From Escherichia coli (GTDB lineage Bacteria; Pseudomonadota; Gammaproteobacteria; Enterobacterales; Enterobacteriaceae), in assembly GCF_003334765.1 (NCBI RefSeq), contig NZ_QOWT01000032.1: DNA of 45,825 bases, one strand, 5' to 3'. The notes beneath the pieces were generated by a model. That model had not been told where the DNA came from, made no database searches, and saw only the letters and a list, made by a program, of their open reading frames with translations. Position 1 is the stretch's first letter. Each line of letters begins with the position of its first letter. Made by a program: the position numbers and the translations under genes. Below are positions 13,180-40,210 of this stretch, in pieces.

Positions 13180-15156
13180 TTATGGCATTACGCCATCAGT
13201 CAGATAGTTGCCATGCTTAACCGCGTGACGCCGCCACATCAGGAGAATTGCAGTCGAGATTGCAGCCCCCACCAATGCCGCGCCAAACCAGCCAATTGCC
13301 GCCATAACACCGCCCGCGCCATTATCATGAAGTAAAAAGAGCGAGAAAATGCCGGCACCGGGTGTCGAAAGGCCGATATTCATCGCACCGACAATAGCGC
13401 CCGTTACCATAGAGCCCAGCACAAACGAACCAATAACCCGCAGCGGATCTTCAATCGCCATCGGGATCGCCCCTTCGGTAATACCTGCCAGCCCTAACAG
13501 CCAGGTGGATTTCCCGGTCTCAATTTCAAACTCTTTAAACAGGCGCGGTGCGAGCATCGTGGAAGCGGTTACGGTAAATGCCGAAACCATTTTGACGGAG
13601 GCGAAAATGGCATACGGGCCGTAAACGCCGTTCGCCATTGCGCCCAGGCAGAATGCATAAGCGGCTTTATTCACTGGCCCTCCAAGGTCAAAGGAACACA
13701 TAAAACCGAGAATGGCACCCAGCAACAGCGCGTTACTTCCTGACAGACCGTTCAGCCAGGCGGTAAGCGAGTTATTGATCCAGGCGACAGGTTCCCCCAC
13801 CACAAACAGCATCAGACTGCCCGCTCCCAACGTACCGAGCACCGGGTAGAGATAAAAAGTCAGGAATCCATTGAATTTACTGCTAAGACGCAAGTGATTT
13901 TTCACCCAGCGCATCAAGTAACCGGCTATCAATCCGCCAACGACCGCGCCGAGAAACCCGGAGCCGATCATGTTGGCGGCAAGTCCAGCCGCAAAGCCTG
14001 GCGCTAACGCCGGTTTATCTGCCAGAGAATAGGCGGTATAGGCCGCGAGCACCGGTACCATCAAAATTCCGAGCAGCCCGCCGCCCAGCTTGCGGTACAT
14101 CCACAGCCAGGAGTTTTCTTCATTAAACAGATCTTGTAGCCCGAAGATTTGCGACAGTAATACCGCGACCGCCAGCACCGTGCCCCCCGCGACAATCAAC
14201 GGTACGGCAAAAGAGATTCCGCTCAACAGTGCCTGTTTCAGCTCCGTTTTGACACTTTTCACCGGTTGCGTATCTTGCTGTACGGTACGCGTCTCATCGC
14301 TACGCTTGAGGGTAAGCGCTTGTTGGATCAACGCTTCTGCATGGCGAATCGGCTCGGCAACAGGCACTGAAAGCGCGGGAATGCCATTAAAACGCTCACT
14401 CTCCTTGATGGCGACTTCAGCCGCAAAAATACAGGCGGTTGCACTATTGAGTTGATCCGCCGTTAAACGCCCTTCAATGCCGTTAGCGCCTTGTTTTTCA
14501 ACGTAAACATTTACGCCGAGTTTGCGTCCGGCTTTTTCCAGATATTCCGCAGCCATATAGGTGTGAGCAATACCCGCCGGACAGGCCGTTACGCAGACGA
14601 TAGTTGGCGCGTTGGAAAAAGAGGCAGAAGGTTGCGTGCCTCCCTTGTCATCCAGCGCCGAGAGCAACTCATCAGGCGTCGTCGCCGACTGTATACGCGC
14701 CCGAATCTCATCATCCGCAAGGCGCGTGGTCAGCGCTGTCAGCAGTTGCATATGCGTAGTACCCGCTTCATTGGGGGGAATCGCCAGCAGCACCACTAAA
14801 TCAACTGCTTCCGGGCCATCAACGCCTTCCCACTGAAGCGGCTCGCTGAGTGTGGCGACCGCAAACGCCGCTTCTTTTACCGCAGCAGTTTTGCCATGCG
14901 GCACAGCCAACCCTTCACCTAAGGCGGTCGGGCCAAGGCTTTCACGGCGATACACTTCTTCCAGAAATTGCTCAGTACTGGAAATTTTCCCCAGAGCAGC
15001 AAGACGTTGAGTCAACGCGTGGATGGCCTCTTCACGGCTGGTAAAGCGCGCATTCAGACACAACGCATCGCGGTGGGTCAGAGTCGTCAGATTCATCATG
15101 ATCCTCACTTGATCGTTTTTATAGTCGCGCCAGTGTGCCCGATAAAACAATACCAT
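13180..15156 (-). CDS. mngA: PTS 2-O-alpha-mannosyl-D-glycerate-specific EIIABC component MngA (true start possibly at 15096)
   Basis: 658-aa longest ORF with EIIA, EIIB ([17 protein letters not shown]) and EIIC domains; the ATG at 15094-15096 has a GAGGA Shine-Dalgarno, the ORF start at 15156 has none. Confidence 0.9.
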
Positions 15157-15264
15157 TATGTGATCAATTTCACTTGATTGAAATTATTTGTATTGTATTT
15201 GTATTATTTACAGGATGAATTTATCGGGCATAATGGTTAAATTCGTATTAATGAGATACTAAAA
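15097..15264. promoter_or_regulatory. mngR-mngA divergent control region with repeated motifs (probable MngR operators)
   Basis: gcccgataaa (15137-15146) / tttatcgggc (15220-15229) inverted 10-mers; ccattatg / cataatgg; aatttca-N6-tgaaatt palindrome; tgtatt x3. Confidence 0.55.
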
Positions 15265-15987
15265 ATGGGACACAAGCCCTTATACCGGCAGATTGCCGAT
15301 CGCATTCGTGAACAAATTGCGCGTGGCGAGCTTAAACCTGGCGATGCGTTACCCACTGAATCAGCGCTACAAACAGAGTTTGGCGTCAGCCGGGTTACGG
15401 TGCGTCAGGCTTTGCGCCAGCTAGTCGAGCAGCAGATCCTCGAAAGCATTCAGGGCAGCGGGACTTACGTCAAAGAAGAGCGGGTCAATTACGATATTTT
15501 TCAGTTAACCAGTTTTGATGAAAAACTGTCGGACCGTCACGTCGATACACACAGTGAAGTTCTGATATTCGAAGTGATTCCGGCTGACGATTTTCTTCAG
15601 CAACAGCTACAAATCACCCCGCAGGATCGTGTGTGGCATGTGAAGCGCGTGCGCTATCGCAAGCAAAAGCCAATGGCGCTGGAAGAAACCTGGATGCCGC
15701 TTGCGTTGTTCCCGGATCTCACCTGGCAGGTCATGGAAAATTCGAAATATCACTTTATCGAAGAAGTGAAGAAAATGGTTATCGATCGTAGCGAACAGGA
15801 AATCATTCCTCTGATGCCAACCGAAGAGATGAGCCGTCTGCTTAATATCAGCCAGACAAAGCCGATTCTTGAAAAAGTATCGCGTGGATATTTAGTTGAT
15901 GGTCGGGTGTTTGAATATAGCCGCAACGCTTTTAATACCGATGACTATAAATTTACCCTGATAGCGCAGCGAAAATCATCGCGATAA
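15265..15987 (+). CDS. mngR: GntR/HutC-family transcriptional repressor MngR (FarR)
   Basis: 240-aa ORF with N-terminal GntR winged HTH and UTRA-like C-terminal domain. Confidence 0.93.
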   Translation: MGHKPLYRQIADRIREQIARGELKPGDALPTESALQTEFGVSRVTVRQALRQLVEQQILESIQGSGTYVKEERVNYDIFQLTSFDEKLSDRHVDTHSEVLIFEVIPADDFLQQQLQITPQDRVWHVKRVRYRKQKPMALEETWMPLALFPDLTWQVMENSKYHFIEEVKKMVIDRSEQEIIPLMPTEEMSRLLNISQTKPILEKVSRGYLVDGRVFEYSRNAFNTDDYKFTLIAQRKSSR

Positions 15988-15991
15988 GCAC

Positions 15992-16015
15992 AAAAAAGGC
16001 CATCATACGATGGCC
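15992..16015 (-). terminator. Rho-independent terminator of the sucABCD transcript and SdhX
   Basis: Hairpin ggccatc-atac-gatggcc (15998-16015) followed on the minus strand by TTTTTT. Confidence 0.8.
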
Positions 16016-16090
16016 AACCATGTCGAAACCGACAGCCCTTCGCCATTCCTGTAGAGGGAAGCGGCGAGGGCTATTTCTTATTACAGATAT
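15992..16090 (-). ncRNA. sdhX: 3'UTR-derived sRNA SdhX (RybD) following sucD
   Basis: About 100-nt 3'UTR between sucD stop and the terminator; identity from established knowledge of this locus, sequence not independently verified. Confidence 0.55.
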
Positions 16091-16960
16091 TTATTTCAGA
16101 ACAGTTTTCAGTGCTTCACCGATATCCGCCAGGCTGCGAACGGTTTTCACGCCTGCGGCTTCCAGAGCAGCGAATTTCTCATCCGCAGTCCCTTTCCCAC
16201 CGGCAATGATGGCACCCGCGTGGCCCATACGTTTGCCTTTCGGCGCAGTCACACCAGCGATGTAACCCACAACTGGCTTGGTAACGTGCTCTTTGATGTA
16301 CGCAGCTGCTTCTTCTTCAGCGCTACCGCCGATCTCACCGATCATCACGATCGCTTCGGTCTGCGGATCTTTTTCGAACATTTCGAGAATGTCGATAAAG
16401 TTAGAGCCCGGGATCGGGTCACCGCCGATACCGACACAGGTCGACTGACCGAAACCGTAATCCGTGGTCTGTTTAACCGCTTCATAGGTCAGTGTACCGG
16501 AACGGGAAACGATACCCACTTTACCCGGTTTGTGAATGTGACCAGGCTGGATACCGATTTTGCATTCACCCGGAGTGATAACGCCTGGGCAGTTCGGGCC
16601 GATCATACGAACGCCTGCTTCATCCAGCTTCACTTTCACGGTCAGCATATCCAGCGTCGGGATGCCTTCAGTGATGGTGATAATCAGTTTGATGCCTGCG
16701 TCGATGGCTTCCAGAATGGAGTCTTTGCAGAACGGTGCTGGTACGTAGATAACAGAAGCGGTAGCGCCAGTGGCAGCAACGGCTTCACGCACGGTGTTGA
16801 ACACCGGCAGGCCGAGGTGGGTGGTGCCGCCTTTACCTGGGGTTACGCCGCCAACCATTTTAGTGCCGTATGCAATGGCCTGTTCTGAGTGGAAAGTCCC
16901 CTGGCTACCGGTAAAGCCCTGGCAGATAACCTTGGTGTTTTTATCGATTAAAATGGACAT
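16091..16960 (-). CDS. sucD: Succinyl-CoA synthetase alpha subunit
   Basis: 289-aa [31 protein letters not shown]... Confidence 0.97.
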
Positions 16961-18126
16961 TATTTCCCCTCCACTGCGGCAACAACCTGCTGAGCTGCAT
17001 CCGTCAGACCTTTTGCTGCAATAATATTCAGGCCGCTGTCAGCCAGTTTCTTCGCGCCGAGTTCGGCGTTGTTACCTTCCAGACGTACCACGACCGGTAC
17101 GTTAACACCCACTTCTGCTACCGCGCCGATGATACCGTCAGCGATCAGGTCGCAACGAACGATACCGCCGAAGATGTTAACCAGAACGGCTTTCACTTTG
17201 TCGTCAGAGAGGATGATTTTGAACGCTTCGGTTACACGTTCTTTGGTTGCGCCGCCGCCAACGTCAAGGAAGTTAGCCGGTTCGCCGCCGTGCAGTTTAA
17301 CGATGTCCATCGTACCCATCGCCAGACCTGCGCCGTTAACCATACAACCGATGTTACCGTCCAGCGCAACGTAGTTCAGTTCCCACTGTGCAGCCTGTGC
17401 TTCACGCGGATCTTCCTGCGACTGGTCACGCATTTCGCGCAGATCAGGCTGGCGGAACAGTGCGTTGCCGTCAGCGCCCAGTTTGCCGTCGAGGCAAATC
17501 AGATCGCCCTGTTTGGTGATGACCAGCGGGTTGATTTCGATCAACGCCAGGTCGCGCTCCAGGAAAATGGTCGCCAGGCCCATGAAGATTTTGGTGAACT
17601 GCTGAACCAGTTTACCTTCCAGACCCAGTTTGAACGCCAGCTCGCGTCCCTGATACGGCATCGGGCCAGTCAGCGGATCAAGCGCAACTTTATGGATCAG
17701 GTGCGGAGTTTCTTCCGCCACTTTTTCGATTTCCACGCCGCCTTCGGTGGAGGCCATAAAGACCACACGACGGGAACTACGGTCAACAACGGCACCGAGA
17801 TACAGCTCTTTAGCGATATCGGTCGCTGCTTCAACCAGAATCTGGTTAACCGGTTGGCCATTGGCATCTGTTTGATACGTTACCAGACGCTTGCCCAGCC
17901 AGTTTTCTGCAAAAGCACGGATGTCTTCTTTGCTGTTTACAACTTTCACACCGCCCGCTTTACCGCGGCCACCAGCGTGAACCTGACATTTCACTACCCA
18001 CGGACCGGCACCGATTTTTGAAGCGGCTTCTTCTGCTTCGCGCGGAGTAGTACAGGCATAACCCACCGGTGCTGGTAAGCCATAGCGGGCAAAAAGTTGT
18101 TTTGCCTGATATTCATGTAAGTTCAT
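16960..18126 (-). CDS. sucC: Succinyl-CoA synthetase beta subunit (ATP-grasp)
   Basis: 388-aa [21 protein letters not shown]...; 1-nt overlap with sucD. Confidence 0.97.
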
Positions 18127-18211
18127 GTGTTCTGTCCATCCTTCAGTAATCGTTATCTTTTAAACCGTAGACCGAATATTTCGTATCGCTTCCGGGCATT
18201 GTCGGTCACCC

Positions 18212-18378
18212 GTAGGCCTGATAAGACACGTTAAACGTCACATCAGGCATCGCTTGTCGGATGCGGCGCTAGCGCCTTATCCGACCTACATTGGTGGTCC
18301 CGTAGGCCTGATAAGACGCGTCAGCGTCGCATCAGGCTTCAATTGCCGGAGAAGGCGATAATGCCTTATCCGGTCTAC
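18212..18378. repeat. BIME: four alternating REP elements in the sucB-sucC intergenic region
   Basis: gtaggcctgataagacacg...catcaggc; cggatgcggcgctagcgccttatccgacctaca; second Y and Z copies follow. Confidence 0.85.
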
Positions 18379-18400
18379 AGTGCAGGTGAAACTTAAACTA

Positions 18401-19618
18401 CTACACGTCCAGCAGCAGACGCGTCGGATCTTCCAGCAACTCTTTGATCGTTACCAGGAAGCCCACGGATTCGCGACCATCGATCAGACGGTGATCGTAG
18501 GACAGCGCCAGGTACATCATCGGCAGGATCTCAACCTGACCATTCACCGCCATCGGACGATCTTTGATAGCGTGCATACCCAGAATTGCGCTCTGCGGCG
18601 GGTTGATGATCGGCGTAGACATCAGGGAACCGAACACACCACCGTTGGTGATGGTGAAGTTACCACCGGTCAGATCTTCAACGGTCAGCTTGCCGTCACG
18701 GCCTTTGACTGCCAGCTCTTTGATTTTCTTCTCGATGTCTGCCATGCCGAGGGTATCGACATCACGCAGAACCGGCGTCACCAGGCCGCGCGGCGTAGAA
18801 ACCGCCATGCTGACGTCGAAATAGTTGTGGTAAACCACGTCATCGCCGTCGATAGAAGCGTTCACTTCCGGGTAACGTTTCAGGGCTTCAACCACCGCTT
18901 TCACGTAGAAGGACATAAAGCCCAGACGGATGCCGTGGCGTTTTTCAAACGCTTCACCGTACTGCTTACGCAGATCCATAATCGGCTTCATGTTGACTTC
19001 GTTGAACGTGGTCAGCATGGCGGTGGAGTTTTTCGCTTCCAGCAGACGCTCTGCCACACGCTTACGCAGGCGAGTCATCGGGACACGTTTTTCACTACGT
19101 GCAGCCAGAGCCGGTTGCGCCGCCGGAGCAGCCGCTGCCGGAGCAGACTCTTTCGCCGGGGCTTTCGCCAGATGTTTTTCCACATCTTCACGAGTCAGAC
19201 GACCACCCACACCGGTGCCTTTAATGGCGCTGGCGTCGAGATTGTGTTCAGCCAGCAGGCGACGGATCGCCGGGCTTAACGCATCGTTGTTTTGCTCTTC
19301 CAGAGACGCCTGCTGGCGTTGCGCCGGAGTGGACGCTTTCTCTTCAGATTTGGCGCTGGTTTCTTTACCGGCGCTGTTGCCTTCACGCAGGCGACCAAGG
19401 ATCTGACGAGACGTTACCGTTGTACCTTCATCTTCCAGAACCGCATCCAGAATGCCGTCTGCTGATGCCGGTACTTCCAGTACCACTTTGTCAGTTTCGA
19501 TTTCTACCAGCACTTCATCACGTACGACTGCGTCGCCGGGTTTTTTATGCCAGGTTGCGACGGTGGCATCGGCTACGGATTCAGGCAGGTCAGGGACCAG
19601 AATATCTACGCTACTCAT
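18401..19618 (-). CDS. sucB: 2-oxoglutarate dehydrogenase E2 (dihydrolipoyllysine succinyltransferase)
   Basis: 405-aa ORF with lipoyl domain (ETDKVVLEV) and catalytic domain. Confidence 0.97.
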
Positions 19619-19632
19619 TGTGTATCCTTTAT

Positions 19633-22434
19633 TTATTCGACGTTCAGCGCGTCATTAACCAGATCTTGTTGCTGTTTCTGGTGAACGGACATATACCCTA
19701 CCGCCGGAGAGGCGGAGGCCGGGCGGCCTGCATAACGCAGAGAAGCCCCAAACGGAATCACTTCACGGAAATGATGCTGGCTGCAGTACCATGCGCCCTG
19801 GTTGAGCGGCTCTTCCTGGCACCAGACAAAATCCTTGACGTGAGCAAACTGCTGCAACACTTCCTGCATCGCTTTATGCGGGAACGGGTAGAGTTGCTCG
19901 ATACGCACAATGGCGACATCGTGTTGATTGTTCTTACGACGCTGTTCCAGCAGGTCGTAATAAACCTTACCAGAACACATCACTACGCGCTTCACGCCCT
20001 TCGGATCAAGCTCGTCGATTTCACCGATGGCTGGCAGGAAGGTGCCGTTCGCCAGTTCTTCGAGGCTGGAAACCGCCAGCGGATGACGCAGCAGGGATTT
20101 CGGCGACATCACGACCAGCGGACGACGCATCCCGCGCAGCGCCTGACGACGCAGCATGTGGTAAACCTGTGCCGGGGTAGACGGTACGCAAACCTGCATG
20201 TTTTGCTCAGCACAAAGTTGCAGATAACGTTCCAGACGCGCGGAGGAGTGCTCCGGCCCCTGCCCTTCGTAACCGTGCGGCAGCAACATCACCAGACCAC
20301 ACATCCGGCCCCATTTCTGTTCGCCAGAGGAGATGAACTGGTCGATAACCACCTGCGCACCGTTGGCGAAGTCACCGAACTGCGCTTCCCAGATGGTCAG
20401 AGTGCGTGGTTCTGCGGTGGCATAACCATATTCAAACGCCAGCACTGCTTCTTCAGACAGTACGGAGTCCCAGACACGGAACGCGCCCTGCCCGTTATGG
20501 ATATGTTGCAGCGGCGTGTAAGTGGAACCGTTAGACTGGTTGTGGATCACCGCGTGGCGGTGGAAGAAGGTACCGCGACCGGAGTCTTCACCCGACAGGC
20601 GAACCGGAATGCCTTCATCAACCAGCGTGGCGTAAGCGAGGTTTTCCGCACCGCCCCAGTCGAACAGTTTCTCACCGGCAGCCATCGCCTGGCGATCGCC
20701 ATAAATCTTGGCAACGCGAGACTGCATTTCAACTGCTTCCGGCACCGTGCTGATGCGTTTCGCCAGCTCCTGCAGGCGCTTCATCTCAACTTTGTTCGGG
20801 TACTCTTCGTCCCATTCGTGGTTGAGGTACGGCGACCAGGTGAAAGAGTGCATGTTCATCGGACGCCACTCTGCCACTACGCAATCGCCAGCATCCAGCG
20901 CATCGCGGTACAGGTTAACCATCTCGGTGGCATCTTCCAGCGTCGCCACTTTTTCCTGCTCCAGCTTGTCAGCGTAGATTTTGCGCGGTGTCGGATGTTT
21001 TTTGATTTTCTGATACATCAGCGGCTGGGTTGCGCTCGGCTCGTCGGCTTCGTTGTGGCCGTGACGGCGGTAGCACACCAGGTCGATGAAGACATCACGT
21101 TTAAAGGTGTTACGGAAATCGAGCGCCAGACGGGTCACAAAGGCAACGGCTTCCGGATCGTCCGCGTTAACGTGGAAAATCGGGGCCTGAACCATCTTAC
21201 CGATATCAGTACAGTACGGCGTAGAACGGGCATCCAGCGGATTAGAGGTGGTGAAACCAACCTGGTTGTTGATAACGATACGTACCGTACCGCCAACTTC
21301 ATAACCACGCGCTTTCGACATGTTCAGGGTTTCCTGAACCACGCCCTGCCCGGTCACTGCGGCGTCACCGTGGATGGTGATTGGCAGCACTTTGTTGCTG
21401 CTCGGCTCATCAAGTCTGTCCAGACGGGCACGAACAGAACCGATAACTACCGGGCTTACAATCTCAAGGTGAGACGGGTTAAACGCCAGCGCCAGGTGCA
21501 CCAGGCCGCCATCGGTCTGGAAGTCAGACGAGAAGCCCATGTGGTATTTCACGTCACCCGTGCCGAGGTGTTCTTTATGTTTACCGGCGAACTCGTCGAA
21601 CAAGTCTTGCGGTTTTTTACCCAGCACGTTCACCAGCACGTTCAGACGACCACGGTGCGCCATCCCGAGAACCACTTCGCGGGTGCCGCTGTTGCCAGCG
21701 TGGCGGATCATCTCTTTAAGCATCGGGATTAACGCGTCACCGCCTTCCAGCGAGAAGCGTTTTGCGCCAGGGAATTTTGCGCCGAGGTAACGTTCAAGAC
21801 CTTCAGCGGCGGTCAGTTCGCTTAAGAAGCGTTTTTTCTCTTCGCTATTGAAAGTCGCGCGACCAGACTCGATACGCTGTTGGATCCAGCGTTTTTCTTC
21901 GGTGCTGGTAATGTGCATATACTCGGCACCAATCGGGCCGCAGTAGGTTTGCTTGAGGGCTTCCAGCAGCTCGCCGAGTTTCATGGTTTCTTTGCCGCTG
22001 GCAAATGAACCGACGTTGAAGGTCTCCTGGAAGTCTGCTTCGGTCAGATCGTGGAAAGACGGATCCAGATCGGCCACTTTATCTTGCTGCCACAGTCCCA
22101 GCGGATCGAGATTCGCATGCTGGTGACCACGGAAGCGGTATGCGTTAATGAGCTGCAGGACTTTAACCTGCTTCACATTGGTGTCAGGGTCGGAGATCGT
22201 TGAAGAGTAACGTGAAGCGTCTTTCGCCAGGCGGCGGAAATATTCACGCGTTTGAGAGTGGAATTGATCCGGTTTGACTCCCGTACCAGGTAACTGCTGG
22301 AACGTCGAACGCCAGTTAGCGTCAACCGAGTCAGGATCGGTTAAGAAGTCTTCATAGAGCTGTTCTATCCAGCTCTGGTTTGCGCCAGAGAGGTAAGAAG
22401 AGTCCAACCAGGCTTTCAAAGCGCTGTTCTGCAT
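19633..22434 (-). CDS. sucA: 2-oxoglutarate dehydrogenase E1 component
   Basis: 933-aa [33 protein letters not shown]... Confidence 0.97.
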
Positions 22435-22613
22435 CGTGATCCCTTAAGCATCTTTTTTATGCTTACTTCGCCGTGGATACTACCACGCACAGTGATGTGC
22501 GTGCCGGGGTTCACTTGCGAGCTCTTGTCTACGTAGTGGCTCGCGAAGGAACCTTTAAAAACTGTCTTAGTGTCAGGGGCAGTTTTTAAAGATTTCCTGC
22601 ATTTCTTTGTTAC

Positions 22614-22731
22614 GCCTGATGCGCTGCGCTTATCAGGCCTACGGGTAATGACTTGTAGGCCGGATAAGGCGTTCACGCCGCATCCGGCACTGGTTGCCTG
22701 ATGCGACGCTTGCGCGTCTTATCAGGCCTAC
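22614..22731. repeat. BIME: three REP elements in the sdhB-sucA intergenic region
   Basis: gcctgatgcgctgcgcttatcaggcctac; gtaggccggataaggcgttcacgccgcatccggca; gcctgatgcgacgcttgcgcgtcttatcaggcctac. Confidence 0.85.
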
Positions 22732-22734
22732 GGT

Positions 22735-23451
22735 TTACGCATTACGTTGCAACAACATCGACTTGATATGGCCGATGGCGCGCGTCGGGTTCAGCCCCTT
22801 CGGACATACACTGACGCAGTTCATGATGCTGTGACAGCGGAATACGCTGAATGCATCACTCAAACCGTCGAGGCGGCTGTCAGTCTCGGTATCACGGCTA
22901 TCAATCAGGAAACGATATGCCGCTAACAAGCCTGCCGGGCCGATAAACTTATCGGGATTCCACCAGAAAGACGGACAAGAGGTTGAACAACATGCGCAGA
23001 GAATACATTCATACAGCCCGTCGAGTTTTTCGCGCTGCTCTGGCATCTGTAAATGCTCGCGAGCTGGCGGATTTTGTCCATTATTCAACAGGTAAGGCTT
23101 AATTTTCTCATATTGCGCATAGAATTGTCCCATGTCTACCACCAAATCGCGGATCACCGGTAAACCTGGCAGCGGGCGAATCACAATCTTCTTGCCCGGC
23201 TGGTTGAGTGCCGAAATCGGGGTAATACAGGCCAGACCATTCTTGCCGTTCATGTTCAGACCGTCGGAACCGCACACACCTTCACGGCAGGAGCGGCGGA
23301 ACGACAGGCTGGGATCTTTCTCTTTTAGCTGGATAAGCGCATCCAGCAGCATCATGTCGCGACCTTCATCCGCTTCCAGGGTGTAATCCTGCATACGCGG
23401 AGCATCATCAACATCCGGGTTATAGCGATAAATTGAAAACTCGAGTCTCAT
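22735..23451 (-). CDS. sdhB: Succinate dehydrogenase iron-sulfur subunit
   Basis: 238-aa ORF with 2Fe-2S, 4Fe-4S and 3Fe-4S cysteine motifs. Confidence 0.97.
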   Translation of the reverse strand: MRLEFSIYRYNPDVDDAPRMQDYTLEADEGRDMMLLDALIQLKEKDPSLSFRRSCREGVCGSDGLNMNGKNGLACITPISALNQPGKKIVIRPLPGLPVIRDLVVDMGQFYAQYEKIKPYLLNNGQNPPAREHLQMPEQREKLDGLYECILCACCSTSCPSFWWNPDKFIGPAGLLAAYRFLIDSRDTETDSRLDGLSDAFSVFRCHSIMNCVSVCPKGLNPTRAIGHIKSMLLQRNA

Positions 23452-23466
23452 TTTCCTGTCTCCGCA

Positions 23467-25233
23467 TTAGTAAGTACGAATCTTCGGCGGGAATGCCGGG
23501 CGCAGTTTCGGTTCCATGTTGACGCTTCGGCGCGTCATGGATTCCGACTCTGGCAGATACAGGGAGTGGCACAGCCAGTTTTCATCATCACGATCCGGGA
23601 AGTCGAAGCGGCTATGCGCGCCACGGCTTTCGGTACGGAAGTTGGCAGAAACAGCCGTTGCATACGCCGTTTCCATCAGGTTATCCAGTTCCAGGCACTC
23701 AACGCGCTGGGTGTTGAACTCGCTGGAAGTGTCATCCAGACGGGCATTTTTCAGACGCTCGCGGATCACTTTCAACTGCTCAAGCCCTTTCGCCATCGCA
23801 TCACCTTCACGGAAGACCGAGAAGTTATGCTGCATACATTCTTGCAGCGCTTTACGGATCGCCACCGGATCTTCACCGTTACGATTATTGTTCCAGCGGT
23901 TCAGGCGATCCAGAGACGCTTCAACATCAGACTCGCTGGCATCGCGCAGTGCGCCCTGCTCGGCGATAGACTCTTGCAGATGCAGACCTGCCGCGCGACC
24001 AAAGACCACCAGGTCCAGCAGCGAGTTGCCGCCCAGACGGTTAGCGCCGTGTACCGATACACAAGCGATTTCACCAACGGCAAACAGTCCCGGAACAACC
24101 ACATCTTCGCCTTTCTCATTCACAGTCAGCGCCTGACCGGTAACTTTGGTCGGAATACCGCCCATCATGTAGTGACAGGTTGGGATAACCGGAATCGGCT
24201 CTTTCACCGGATCGACGTGAGCGAAGGTACGGGAAAGCTCCAAGATACCCGGCAGACGGGATTCGAGAACTTCTTTACCCAGGTGATCGAGTTTCAGTTT
24301 CGCGTGTGGCCCCCACGGACCATCACAGCCGCGACCTTCACGGATTTCGATCATGATGGAACGCGCAACCACGTCACGGCCCGCCAGGTCTTTGGCGTTC
24401 GGCGCATAACGCTCCATAAAACGTTCGCCATGTTTGTTCAGCAGATAACCGCCTTCACCACGGCAACCTTCGGTGACCAGTACGCCCGCACCGGCAATGC
24501 CGGTCGGGTGGAACTGCCACATTTCCATATCCTGCACCGGTACGCCGGCACGGATAGCCATGCCGACACCGTCGCCGGTGTTAATGTGGGCGTTGGTGGT
24601 GGACTGATAAATACGCCCTGCTCCGCCAGTCGCCAGCACGGTAGCGCGGGCTTTGAAATAAACCACTTCACCGGTTTCGATGCACAGTGCGGTACAACCC
24701 ACCACCGCGCCATCCTGGTTTTTCACCAGATCCAGCGCATACCACTCGGAGAAAATGGTGGTGTGGTTTTTCAGGTTCTGCTGATAAAGCGTGTGCAACA
24801 GTGCGTGACCGGTACGGTCAGCTGCTGCCGCAGTGCGTGCCGCCTGCTCGCCGCCGAAGTTTTTCGACTGACCGCCAAACGGACGTTGATAGATACGACC
24901 ATCATCGAGACGCGAGAACGGCAGGCCCATGTGTTCGAGTTCCAGAATCGCTTCCGGCCCGGTTTTACACATATATTCAATCGCGTCCTGGTCACCGATA
25001 TAGTCCGACCCTTTCACGGTGTCGTACATATGCCATTCCCAGTTATCTTCATGGGTATTACCCAGCGCAACGGTAATGCCGCCTTGCGCAGAAACGGTAT
25101 GGGAACGGGTCGGGAAGACTTTAGAGAGCAGCGCACAGGTCTGGCCGCTCTGGGAAATTTGCAGCGCCGCGCGCATACCTGCGCCACCGGCACCAATCAC
25201 AACTGCATCAAATTCTCTGACTGGCAATTTCAT
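23467..25233 (-). CDS. sdhA: Succinate dehydrogenase flavoprotein subunit
   Basis: 588 aa from [19 protein letters not shown] (FAD-binding GxGxxG); start trimmed from the ORF. Confidence 0.97.
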
Positions 25234-25580
25234 CACACACCCCACACCACAACGAATCCATAAATCACGTAAACCACCAGTGCAACGACAATCACCAGTT
25301 GCAGCATCAGGCGCAAAGCCAGCGGTTTAACGTAGTCGGTCAACACCTGCCACATGCCGATCCAGGCATGGATCAAGATAGAAAACAGCGCCAGCAGGGT
25401 GAACACTTTGGTGAACGCAGAGGCGAAGAAACCGATCCAGACTTCATATGTCAGCTCGCCACTGGTAGCGAAAAAACCGACCATATAAATGATGTAGAGC
25501 GTCAGGACGATAGCGGTAGCGCGAACGAGGATGAAATCATGTACGCCATTGCGTCCTAATGCGGAGGCGTTGCTTACCAT
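25233..25580 (-). CDS. sdhD: Succinate dehydrogenase hydrophobic membrane anchor subunit
   Basis: 115-aa three-TM ORF. Confidence 0.95.
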
Positions 25581-25963
25581 ACGAGGACTCCTGCGAGAAG
25601 TGAAAGCACGACAGTAATAACAAAGGAGATTTTGGCGGAGCGTTTACCCGCTTCGAATGTTTCTTCCAGATAGCCAAAATCCATCATCATGTGGCGAATA
25701 CCTACGACGACGTGATACGCCAGAGCGGTAAGGATGCCCCACATGATAAATTTGACGAAGAAGCTGCCCATAATCGCGGAAGCTTGCTCGAAACCTTCAG
25801 GGGAAGAGAGGCTGGTACCCAGAAGCCACAGCAGGATGCCCACTGCAACAAAGGTGATCACACCGGAAACGCGATGGAGAATGGACGCTATCGCCGTGAT
25901 GGGGAACCGGATGGTCTGTAGGTCCAGATTAACAGGTCTTTGTTTTTTCACATTTCTTATCAT
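25574..25963 (-). CDS. sdhC: Succinate dehydrogenase cytochrome b556 subunit
   Basis: 129 aa from [21 protein letters not shown]; start trimmed from the ORF. Confidence 0.95.
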
Positions 25964-26671
25964 GAATAACGCCCACATGCTGTTCTTATTATTCCCTGGG
26001 GACTACGGGCACAGAGGTTAACTTTCTGTTACCTGGAGACGTCGGGATTTCCTTCCTCCGGTCTGCTTGCGGGTCAGACAGCGTCCTTTCTATAACTGCG
26101 CGTCATGCAAAACACTGCTTCCAGATGCGAAAACGACACGTTACAACGCTGGGTGGCTCGGGATTGCAGGGTGTTCCGGAGACCTGGCGGCAGTATAGGC
26201 TGTTCACAAAATCATTACAATTAACCTACATATAGTTTGTCGGGTTTTATCCTGAACAGTGATCCAGGTCACGATAACAACATTTATTTAATTTTTAATC
26301 ATCTAATTTGACAATCATTCAACAAAGTTGTTACAAACATTACTAGGAAAAGCATATAATGCGTAAAAGTTATGAAGTCGGTATTTCACCTAAGATTAAC
26401 TTATGTAACAGTGTGGAAGTATTGACCAATTCATTCGGGACAGTTATTAGTGGTAGACAAGTTTAATAATTCGGATTGCTAAGTACTTGATTCGCCATTT
26501 ATTCGTCATCAATGGATCCTTTACCTGCAAGCGCCCAGAGCTCTGTACCCAGGTTTTCCCCTCTTTCACAGAGCGGCGAGCCAAATAAAAAACGGGTAAA
26601 GCCAGGTTGATGTGCGAAGGCAAATTTAAGTTCCGGCAGTCTTACGCAATAAGGCGCTAAGGAGACCTTAA
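25964..26671. promoter_or_regulatory. gltA-sdhC divergent promoter/regulatory region
   Basis: 708-bp AT-rich non-coding region between divergent gltA and sdhC; individual operator sites not resolved by eye. Confidence 0.75.
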
Positions 26672-27955
26672 ATGGCTGATACAAAAGCAAAACTCACCCT
26701 CAACGGGGATACAGCTGTTGAACTGGATGTGCTGAAAGGCACGCTGGGTCAAGATGTTATTGATATCCGTACTCTCGGTTCAAAAGGTGTGTTCACCTTT
26801 GACCCAGGCTTCACTTCAACCGCATCCTGCGAATCTAAAATTACTTTTATTGATGGTGATGAAGGTATTTTGCTGCACCGCGGTTTCCCGATCGATCAGC
26901 TGGCGACCGATTCTAACTACCTGGAAGTTTGTTACATCCTGCTGAATGGTGAAAAACCGACTCAGGAACAGTATGACGAATTTAAAACTACGGTGACCCG
27001 TCATACCATGATCCACGAGCAGATTACCCGTCTGTTCCATGCTTTCCGTCGCGACTCGCATCCAATGGCAGTCATGTGTGGTATTACCGGCGCGCTGGCG
27101 GCGTTCTATCACGACTCGCTGGATGTTAACAATCCTCGTCACCGTGAAATTGCCGCGTTCCGCCTGCTGTCGAAAATGCCGACCATGGCCGCGATGTGTT
27201 ACAAGTATTCCATTGGTCAGCCATTTGTTTACCCGCGCAACGATCTCTCCTACGCCGGTAACTTCCTGAATATGATGTTCTCCACGCCGTGCGAACCGTA
27301 TGAAGTTAATCCGATTCTGGAACGTGCTATGGACCGTATTCTGATCCTGCACGCTGACCATGAACAGAACGCCTCTACCTCCACCGTGCGTACCGCTGGC
27401 TCTTCGGGTGCGAACCCGTTTGCCTGTATCGCAGCAGGTATTGCTTCACTGTGGGGACCTGCGCACGGCGGTGCTAACGAAGCGGCGCTGAAAATGCTGG
27501 AAGAAATCAGCTCCGTTAAACACATTCCGGAATTTGTTCGTCGTGCGAAAGACAAAAATGATTCTTTCCGCCTGATGGGCTTCGGTCACCGCGTGTACAA
27601 AAATTACGACCCGCGCGCCACCGTAATGCGTGAAACCTGCCATGAAGTGCTGAAAGAGCTGGGCACGAAGGATGACCTGCTGGAAGTGGCTATGGAGCTG
27701 GAAAACATCGCGCTGAACGACCCGTACTTTATCGAGAAGAAACTGTACCCGAACGTCGATTTCTACTCTGGTATCATCCTGAAAGCGATGGGTATTCCGT
27801 CTTCCATGTTCACCGTCATTTTCGCAATGGCACGTACCGTTGGCTGGATCGCCCACTGGAGCGAAATGCACAGTGACGGTATGAAGATTGCCCGTCCGCG
27901 TCAGCTGTATACAGGATATGAAAAACGCGACTTTAAAAGCGATATCAAGCGTTAA
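26672..27955 (+). CDS. gltA: Citrate synthase (type II)
   Basis: 427-aa [39 protein letters not shown]... Confidence 0.97.
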
Positions 27956-40080: not shown

Positions 40081-40210
40081 GCCTGATGCGACGCTTGACG
40101 CGTCTTATCAGGCCTACGTATTTCCTGCAATTTATTGAATTTGCACAAATTTGTAGGCTGGATAAGGCGTTCACGCCGCATCCGGCATCTGGGCTCGATT
40201 GCCTGACGCG
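40081..40210. repeat. BIME (REP Y + REP Z + partial REP) between convergent dtpD and phr
   Basis: gcctgatgcgacgcttgacgcgtcttatcaggcctacg; gtaggctggataaggcgttcacgccgcatccggca. Confidence 0.85.

Follow-up and report, generated by a model that had tools for sequence, protein, structure and literature searches.

Sequence downstream of sucD in an Escherichia coli contig as the known Hfq-dependent small RNA SdhX

The stretch that follows sucD on the minus strand of the window analysed here (the window being a 45,825-nt piece of Escherichia coli DNA) is almost certainly sdhX, the known Hfq-dependent small RNA cut from the 3′ end of the operon mRNA, and we put the probability of this reading at about 97%. 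Nothing in the sequence contradicts the explanation as SdhX. The finding is an ordinary one, as SdhX is already known, annotated, and experimentally characterised; work on it in both E. coli and Salmonella dates back to 2018-2019, and the K-12 reference names it, so no novelty attaches to its identification. What we show ourselves is the anatomy of the locus, its identity with the annotated gene, three target complementarities, and a strong selective constraint on the seed and terminator as one module; for RNase E processing, binding to Hfq, and in vivo repression we rely on the published papers.

SdhX, also called RybD, was described as an Hfq-dependent sRNA that RNase E produces from the ~10-kb sdhCDAB-sucABCD mRNA (Miyakoshi et al., PMC6393394). 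It occurs in two forms of ~101 nt and ~38 nt (review, PMC9438474), the long form being converted to the short one through a 5′-end-dependent pathway (PMC6393394, PMC9438474). A candidate seed, UUCGACAUGGU, was placed directly ahead of the terminator stem-loop, with ackA as the conserved target, and conservation of the RNA was found to be limited to the seed and the U-stretch (PMC6393394). During growth on acetate, SdhX represses AckA and leaves pta unaffected (PMC6393394, PMC9438474). Two further targets are specific to E. coli, namely fdoG, regulated via G62, and katG, regulated via the variable region around C34, the latter with a published compensatory test of C34G (PMC6393394); chimeras of SdhX with ackA and with katG were recovered by Hfq CLASH in E. 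coli (PMC7213987). The architecture of RNase E-released 3′UTR sRNAs, with the intrinsic terminator as Hfq handle and the seed just upstream, is shared by SdhX with CpxQ (cpxP), SroC (gltIJKL), NarS (narK), and MalH (malG) (PMC9438474). CpxQ is conserved throughout (PMC6393394), whereas in SdhX conservation covers the seed and the terminator only and the remainder is hypervariable.

The minus strand of the window at 15980-16100 is identical to NC_000913.3 (E. coli K-12 MG1655) 765040-765160 at 121 of 121 positions, 10-nt flanks included. Within this segment, K-12 765050..765150 is annotated as "ncRNA sdhX, b4764, small regulatory RNA SdhX", which adjoins sucD and is separated by 2 nt from the end of mngR. 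On a larger scale, the minus strand of the window at 15140-27140 and K-12 754000-766000 are collinear and differ at 4 of 12,001 nt; the block takes in sdhCDAB-sucABCD-sdhX-mngR and the end of gltA, with sdhC through sdhX in the canonical order, and the window is accordingly E. coli chromosomal DNA very close to K-12. The RNA thus comes right after the sucD stop codon, is encoded on the sucD strand, and closes sdhCDAB-sucABCD. The preliminary description of this DNA had named the locus SdhX (RybD), and comparison with the published sequence bears this out, with 100% identity to K-12 sdhX b4764 and the published seed in place. Locus, strand, sequence, seed, terminator, and target complementarities are all those of E. 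coli K-12 SdhX, from which we found no difference. In Salmonella SdhX, the tail is ~75 nt versus 99 nt here, and the katG-pairing loop and G62 of E. coli are specific to E. coli.

The parent transcript of SdhX is the sdhCDAB-sucABCD mRNA, of which sucD is the last gene. The sucD stop codon is the TAA at 16093-16091, the minus strand ending there in ...CUG AAA UAA, and the minus-strand letters after it are AUAUCUGUAAUAAGAAAUAGCCCUCGCCGCUUCCCUCUACAGGAAUGGCGAAGGGCUGUCGGUUUCGACAUGGUUGGCCAUCGUAUGAUGGCCUUUUUUGU. This post-stop tail runs from 16090 to 15992, that is, 99 nt with the final U of U6 as the last base, and contains a hairpin of −12.7 kcal/mol (7 bp, five of them G-C; z = −5.1 versus shuffles), in agreement with the earlier claim of a 99-nt 3′UTR with a strong hairpin plus U6. 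The 3′ end of SdhX is probably located within or just past the U-tract at 15992. The features of the locus are collected in Table 1.

Table 1. Features at the sucD-sdhX-mngR locus, in window coordinates (nt numbers in the first column are those of the 101-nt SdhX).
Feature	Position	Strand	Basis
sucD CDS (289 aa)	16091..16960	minus	ORF list; collinear with K-12 sucD b0729
SdhX (RybD) long form, 101 nt as in the K-12 annotation	15990..16090	minus	identity to NC_000913.3 765050..765150
5′ stem-loop of SdhX (nt 19-57)	16034..16072	minus	fold −22 kcal/mol, z = −4.1
katG-pairing stretch GCUUCCCUCUACAG (nt 29-42)	16049..16062	minus	14 bp with katG −20..−7
Inferred short form, ~37-38 nt, homologue of Salmonella SdhX2	15992..16029	minus	38-nt SdhX2 (PMC6393394)
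Conserved seed UUCGACAUGGU (nt 64-74)	16017..16027	minus	directly 5′ of the terminator; core CGACAU
Rho-independent terminator hairpin GGCCAUC-GUAU-GAUGGCC	15998..16015	minus	fold, cross-species covariation
U6 tract, terminator tail and presumed Hfq 3′ binding site	15992..15997	minus	at least 6 T in every aligned module
mngR, convergent gene	15265..15987	plus	ORF list; K-12 annotation
Plus-strand hairpin, complement of the SdhX 5′ stem-loop, followed by AUUUCUUAUU	16034..16082	plus	plus-strand fold

As a whole, the 101-nt SdhX folds with an MFE of −41.3 kcal/mol (z = −4.7). Its 5′ stem-loop belongs to the variable, species-specific portion of the RNA, and the parts upstream of the seed vary in both length and sequence between genera. 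When the 38-nt form (16029..15992) is folded by itself, the first 14 nt, which include the seed, are predicted to be unpaired; by analogy with Salmonella, the short form of E. coli would start at about nt 62-63. A simple terminator scan of 15200-17000 (1.8 kb) returned the hairpin with U6 after sucD as the sole terminator-like site, a count that is by itself not above chance (1 found versus 2.0 expected from shuffles). The terminator is considered real because of its position at the end of the operon and its conservation with compensatory changes across species, not because of the scan count. Two small open reading frames overlapping this region were rejected as genes, one of 33 aa (15945..16046, minus) that crosses the terminator and one of 81 aa (16020..16265, plus) that lies antisense through sucD; for both, the non-seed sequence is unconserved between genera.

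A search with Rfam 15 gave no match to SdhX or RybD, either for the entire window at the gathering threshold or for 15850-16250 with E up to 10. Chance matches in the low-threshold scan were isrD and snoR9, the best at the locus being isrD, which covers the terminator only and scores 17.3 bits versus a gathering score of 37. No SdhX family appears to exist in the Rfam 15 library, and an independent covariance-model match for SdhX is lacking for that reason. Genome annotation gives a similar picture: at the sdhX match, no annotated feature was found in any of 40 sampled PGAP-annotated E. coli genomes, and only the curated K-12 record names sdhX, in keeping with the lack of an SdhX family in Rfam.

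The conservation of the tail was examined in one genome per species (GTDB representatives), using a degenerate pattern for the SucD C-terminal ADIGEALK and therefore a coding-sequence criterion only. The scan returned 120 stretches, 64 of which are genuine SucD gene ends, making 65 together with the window. The motif CGACAUGG(A)UU is located at most 130 nt from the sucD stop codon in 41 of the 65 SucD ends, all of them from Enterobacteriaceae-type genera (Escherichia, Salmonella, Citrobacter, Enterobacter, Klebsiella, Kluyvera, Kosakonia, Phytobacter, Pluralibacter, Cedecea, Shimwellia, Mangrovibacter, Superficieibacter, and related genera); for any one 10-mer, a 130-nt stretch has a chance expectation of about 1e-4 per locus. 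The remaining 24 ends have no seed and come from Endozoicomonas, Cellvibrionales and Alteromonadales types, Onishia, and some Enterobacterales, including a Pantoea MAG, Sodalis, Biostraticola, and Tenebrionibacter. Isolates labelled Klebsiella sp. BIGb0407 and uncultured Cedecea are also seedless, and their genus labels look doubtful because the SucD C-terminus is different (...TILPR) and the seed is missing. Because the seed itself was used to pick the 41 loci, the constancy of its core is in part a circular result; no such circularity affects the invariant flanks of the seed, the covarying stem, or the clean taxonomic split.

Seed-bearing species differ in how far the seed core (CGACAT) lies from the stop codon, at 10 to 83 nt, and what stands between the two is unalignable between genera. 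An alignment was made of 34 distinct modules from other species that carry the exact 10-mer TTCGACATGG, and TTCGACATGGTTGGCC (16 contiguous non-coding nt), GGCC, and T6 are invariant in 34/34. Three of the seven pairs of the terminator stem covary, with 100% of the cells paired and 33 double changes, the three inner pairs alternating between A-U/C-G/C-G and G-C/U-A/U-A. This covariation score was reached by 0/500 shuffles, and slid registers are only 20-62% paired. For comparison, 36 synonymous third-codon positions in the last part of sucD were examined in the 40 of the 41 seed-bearing species with enough upstream sequence; none is invariant, and the mean pairwise identity is 0.59. Selection on the 16-nt non-coding block is shown in this way independently and quantitatively, with adjacent synonymous sites and the remaining tail drifting. 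The comparison reproduces the published finding that conservation of SdhX is confined to seed and U-stretch (PMC6393394). The invariant module downstream of sucD (TTCGACATGGTTGGCC-loop-GGCC-T6) would give a simple and specific SdhX model.

Several individual loci deserve mention. The sucD tails of Pseudescherichia vulneris and Escherichia sp. ESNIH1 are only 44-45 nt long with the core 10-11 nt past the stop, so that they are essentially a minimal short-form SdhX right after the stop codon. An Enterobacteriaceae-type sucD tail in the MAG Proteobacteria CTSoil_132, counted among the seedless ends, lacks one nt of the seed (UUGACAUGGUU versus UUCGACAUGGUU), which would break the pairing with the UCG codon of ackA. 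In a MAG labelled Collinsella sp., one contig of 1014 bp bears the end of an Enterobacteriaceae sucD together with a perfect SdhX module, and for this reason it is probably a contaminant in an actinobacterial MAG.

It is very unlikely that SdhX is an independent transcript started by a promoter inside sucD and not a processing product. MicL is made in this manner from its own promoter inside cutC, and one weak promoter-like site is present in sucD (16536..16509, minus, 9/12 matches). However, this site is ~420 nt upstream, and promoter-like sites in the final 900 nt of sucD are not above chance (2 found versus 2.2 expected). The 5′ ends of SdhX are not preceded by any promoter-like element, nothing conserved upstream of the seed could serve as one, and the minimal tails of P. 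vulneris and Escherichia sp. ESNIH1 leave only 10-11 nt between stop and core. The accumulation of SucD and SdhX is not parallel (PMC6393394), which would be in favor of separate transcription, but both SdhX forms are lost in a Salmonella strain with temperature-sensitive RNase E (rne-ts; PMC6393394).

Even less probable is the explanation that the stretch is a mere intrinsic terminator with the passive 3′ tail of the sdh-suc operon, without regulation in trans. A hairpin with a U-tract is found soon after the stop at every SucD end examined, non-Enterobacteriaceae included, and a terminator after sucD is therefore expected regardless of any sRNA. A passive terminator, however, needs none of the upstream 12 nt, yet UUCGACAUGGUU is invariant in the 34 modules while the synonymous sites of sucD and the remaining tail vary, and the non-enterobacterial tails are without it. 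That the RNA regulates in trans has been shown by compensatory mutations and by Hfq data (PMC6393394, PMC7213987), and loss of ackA, fdoG or katG regulation with termination and SucD levels intact has been reported for a Salmonella seed point mutant (PMC6393394).

For the complementarity of SdhX to its targets, target regions were taken from K-12, and pairing was evaluated by an ungapped-helix search and seed-restricted duplexes. The pairing with ackA involves SdhX nt 64-73 (UUCGACAUGG) and target positions −2..+8 (CCAUGUCGAG), spanning AUG, with a duplex energy of −15.7 kcal/mol that was matched by 19/1000 shuffled targets. The seed pairing that the preliminary description had suggested for prediction is accordingly located at the start and second codon of ackA (AUG UCG), in a region that is at least 99% identical in 5127/5425 E. 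coli genomes. For fdoG, SdhX nt 62-71 (16029..16020) pair with −22..−13 at −16.5 kcal/mol, and G62 is opposite C-13, as published. For katG, nt 29-42 form 14 contiguous bp with −20..−7, including C34 and covering the Shine-Dalgarno sequence, a helix length reached by 9/2000 shuffled targets. The positions mutated in the published work, nt 62 (G) and nt 34 (C), are inside the computed fdoG and katG duplexes, respectively.

Pairing alone would not prove targeting, as the seed duplexes are only modestly better than the shuffled controls, and the weight of the target evidence comes from the match with the published compensatory mutants and not from pairing energy. Helix length alone is uninformative for ackA, because a 10-bp helix anywhere in the 101-nt SdhX is reached by ~20% of shuffled targets. 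Two other ways of computing the pairing were discarded. The longest ackA helix with G-U pairs allowed picked the A/U-rich nt 2-11 and not the seed, such helices being equalled by ~20% of shuffles, and RNAduplex with full-length SdhX against 90-nt targets gave over-extended duplexes with large loops, which are meaningless.

Taken with the published biology, the mechanism is most probably the following. SdhX would have no transcription of its own and would be the 3′ end of the ~10-kb sdhCDAB-sucABCD mRNA, with transcription of the operon stopping at the hairpin and U6 after sucD. A cut by RNase E near the sucD stop codon would release the ~101-nt SdhX, and a second cut just 5′ of the seed would give the ~38-nt form. 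Hfq would be held by the terminator hairpin and the U-tail, leaving the single-stranded UUCGACAUGG to pair with the start and second codon of ackA (CCAUGUCGAG) and block its translation. In E. coli, the seed extended by G62 would also pair upstream of fdoG, and the E. coli-specific loop region (nt 29-42) would pair with the Shine-Dalgarno sequence of katG. Expression of the TCA-cycle operon would in this way lead to lower acetate kinase, the ackA start being blocked by SdhX.

On the opposite strand, the stop codon of mngR is located 2 nt from the annotated 3′ end of sdhX and 4 nt before the complement of the U-tract, so any 3′ tail of the mngR mRNA is antisense to SdhX. On the plus strand, the common hairpin has A6 before it and AACCAUGUCG after it, that is, no U-tract. 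A bidirectional intrinsic terminator, which would share with this locus the single hairpin between two convergent genes, was rejected, because U6 is present on the minus strand and AACCAUGUCG without a U-tract on the plus strand; the U-tract is on the sucD side only. The hairpin between sucD and mngR is unidirectional by sequence since the position of the A-tract is taken by the invariant seed (ACAUGGUU). The earlier statement that mngR converges on the common hairpin without a U-tract of its own therefore stands as far as this hairpin is concerned, and needs to be qualified in that mngR may have another terminator further along the plus strand. A strong hairpin, built from the complement of the SdhX 5′ stem-loop and followed by AUUUCUUAUU, also appears in the plus-strand fold and could be a candidate mngR terminator, and mngR is for this reason not necessarily without any terminator.

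mngR is found beside sucD in 3883/5426 complete E. coli genomes (~72%) and is missing there in ~28%. The neighbourhoods without mngR include those of O157:H7 and SF-088, and in them homology to the window stops at, or a few bases past, the U-tract of SdhX. Next to sdhX, O157:H7 instead has a gene for a LysR-type regulator and SF-088 one for a TPR protein. In the ~72% of strains with adjacent mngR, the tail of the mngR mRNA could titrate SdhX; a search of the available literature library for SdhX together with mngR found no paper. That the hairpins mainly serve the convergent mngR, either as its terminator or through an antisense overlap controlling SdhX or mngR, is no more probable than a passive terminator, because in spite of the 2-nt spacing of mngR from sdhX and the AUUUCUUAUU after the plus-strand hairpin, the common hairpin has no plus-strand U-tract, the ~28% of complete E. 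coli genomes without adjacent mngR keep the entire sdhX with homology ending at the U-tract, and E. albertii and other genera likewise keep sdhX with no mngR beside it.

Within E. coli, sdhX is present in all 5426 complete genomes, and about a quarter of them (1334) differ from the K-12 sdhX allele at a few positions. An allele combining U36C, U46G, and G83U has exact matches in 698/5426 complete genomes, including SF-088, ATCC 11775, and strain 2/0; nt 36 and 46 are at 16045-16055 of the window and nt 83 at 16008. With U36C, the 14-bp katG duplex acquires a central C-A mismatch, the katG site itself being identical in 5419/5426 genomes, and U46G lets C30 pair, by which the SdhX 5′ stem-loop is stabilised according to the fold prediction. 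The predicted energy of the katG duplex weakens from −28.2 to −23.4 kcal/mol in this allele, and cofolding leaves the stem-loop closed. With the mismatched duplex and the tighter stem-loop, the predictions suggest that strains carrying the allele may have lost or weakened the control of catalase by SdhX. As a tentative suggestion, which we consider possible but less likely than not, the species-specific arm of SdhX may still be evolving with the ackA seed fixed, catalase control may be lost or weakened in the allele strains, and the mngR tail could titrate SdhX.

In strain FDAARGOS_944, an IS1 element separates the seed (...ACAUGG) of sdhX from the terminator hairpin, having inserted at the equivalent of about 16017/16018 of the window, and is a natural disruption of both the 3′ end of SdhX and the terminator of the sdh-suc operon. 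Natural variants of this kind provide ready tests of the target-specific arms, namely the U36C/U46G/G83U allele, the IS1 disruption, and the minimal Pseudescherichia tails (44-45 nt). The search of E. coli genomes also returned two sucD-sdhX matches and two katG 5′ matches in records classed as plasmids, which may be mis-assigned replicons or large chromosomal fragments on plasmids.

Elsewhere in the window, matches to Rfam were obtained for a tRNA cluster with RtT repeats (1-586, minus), the CpoB/ybgF thermometer (1513-1651, minus), two naRNA4/REP-type elements in the sucB-sucC and sdhB-sucA intergenic regions (18215-18286 and 22658-22728), and ES036 (40110-40152, minus).
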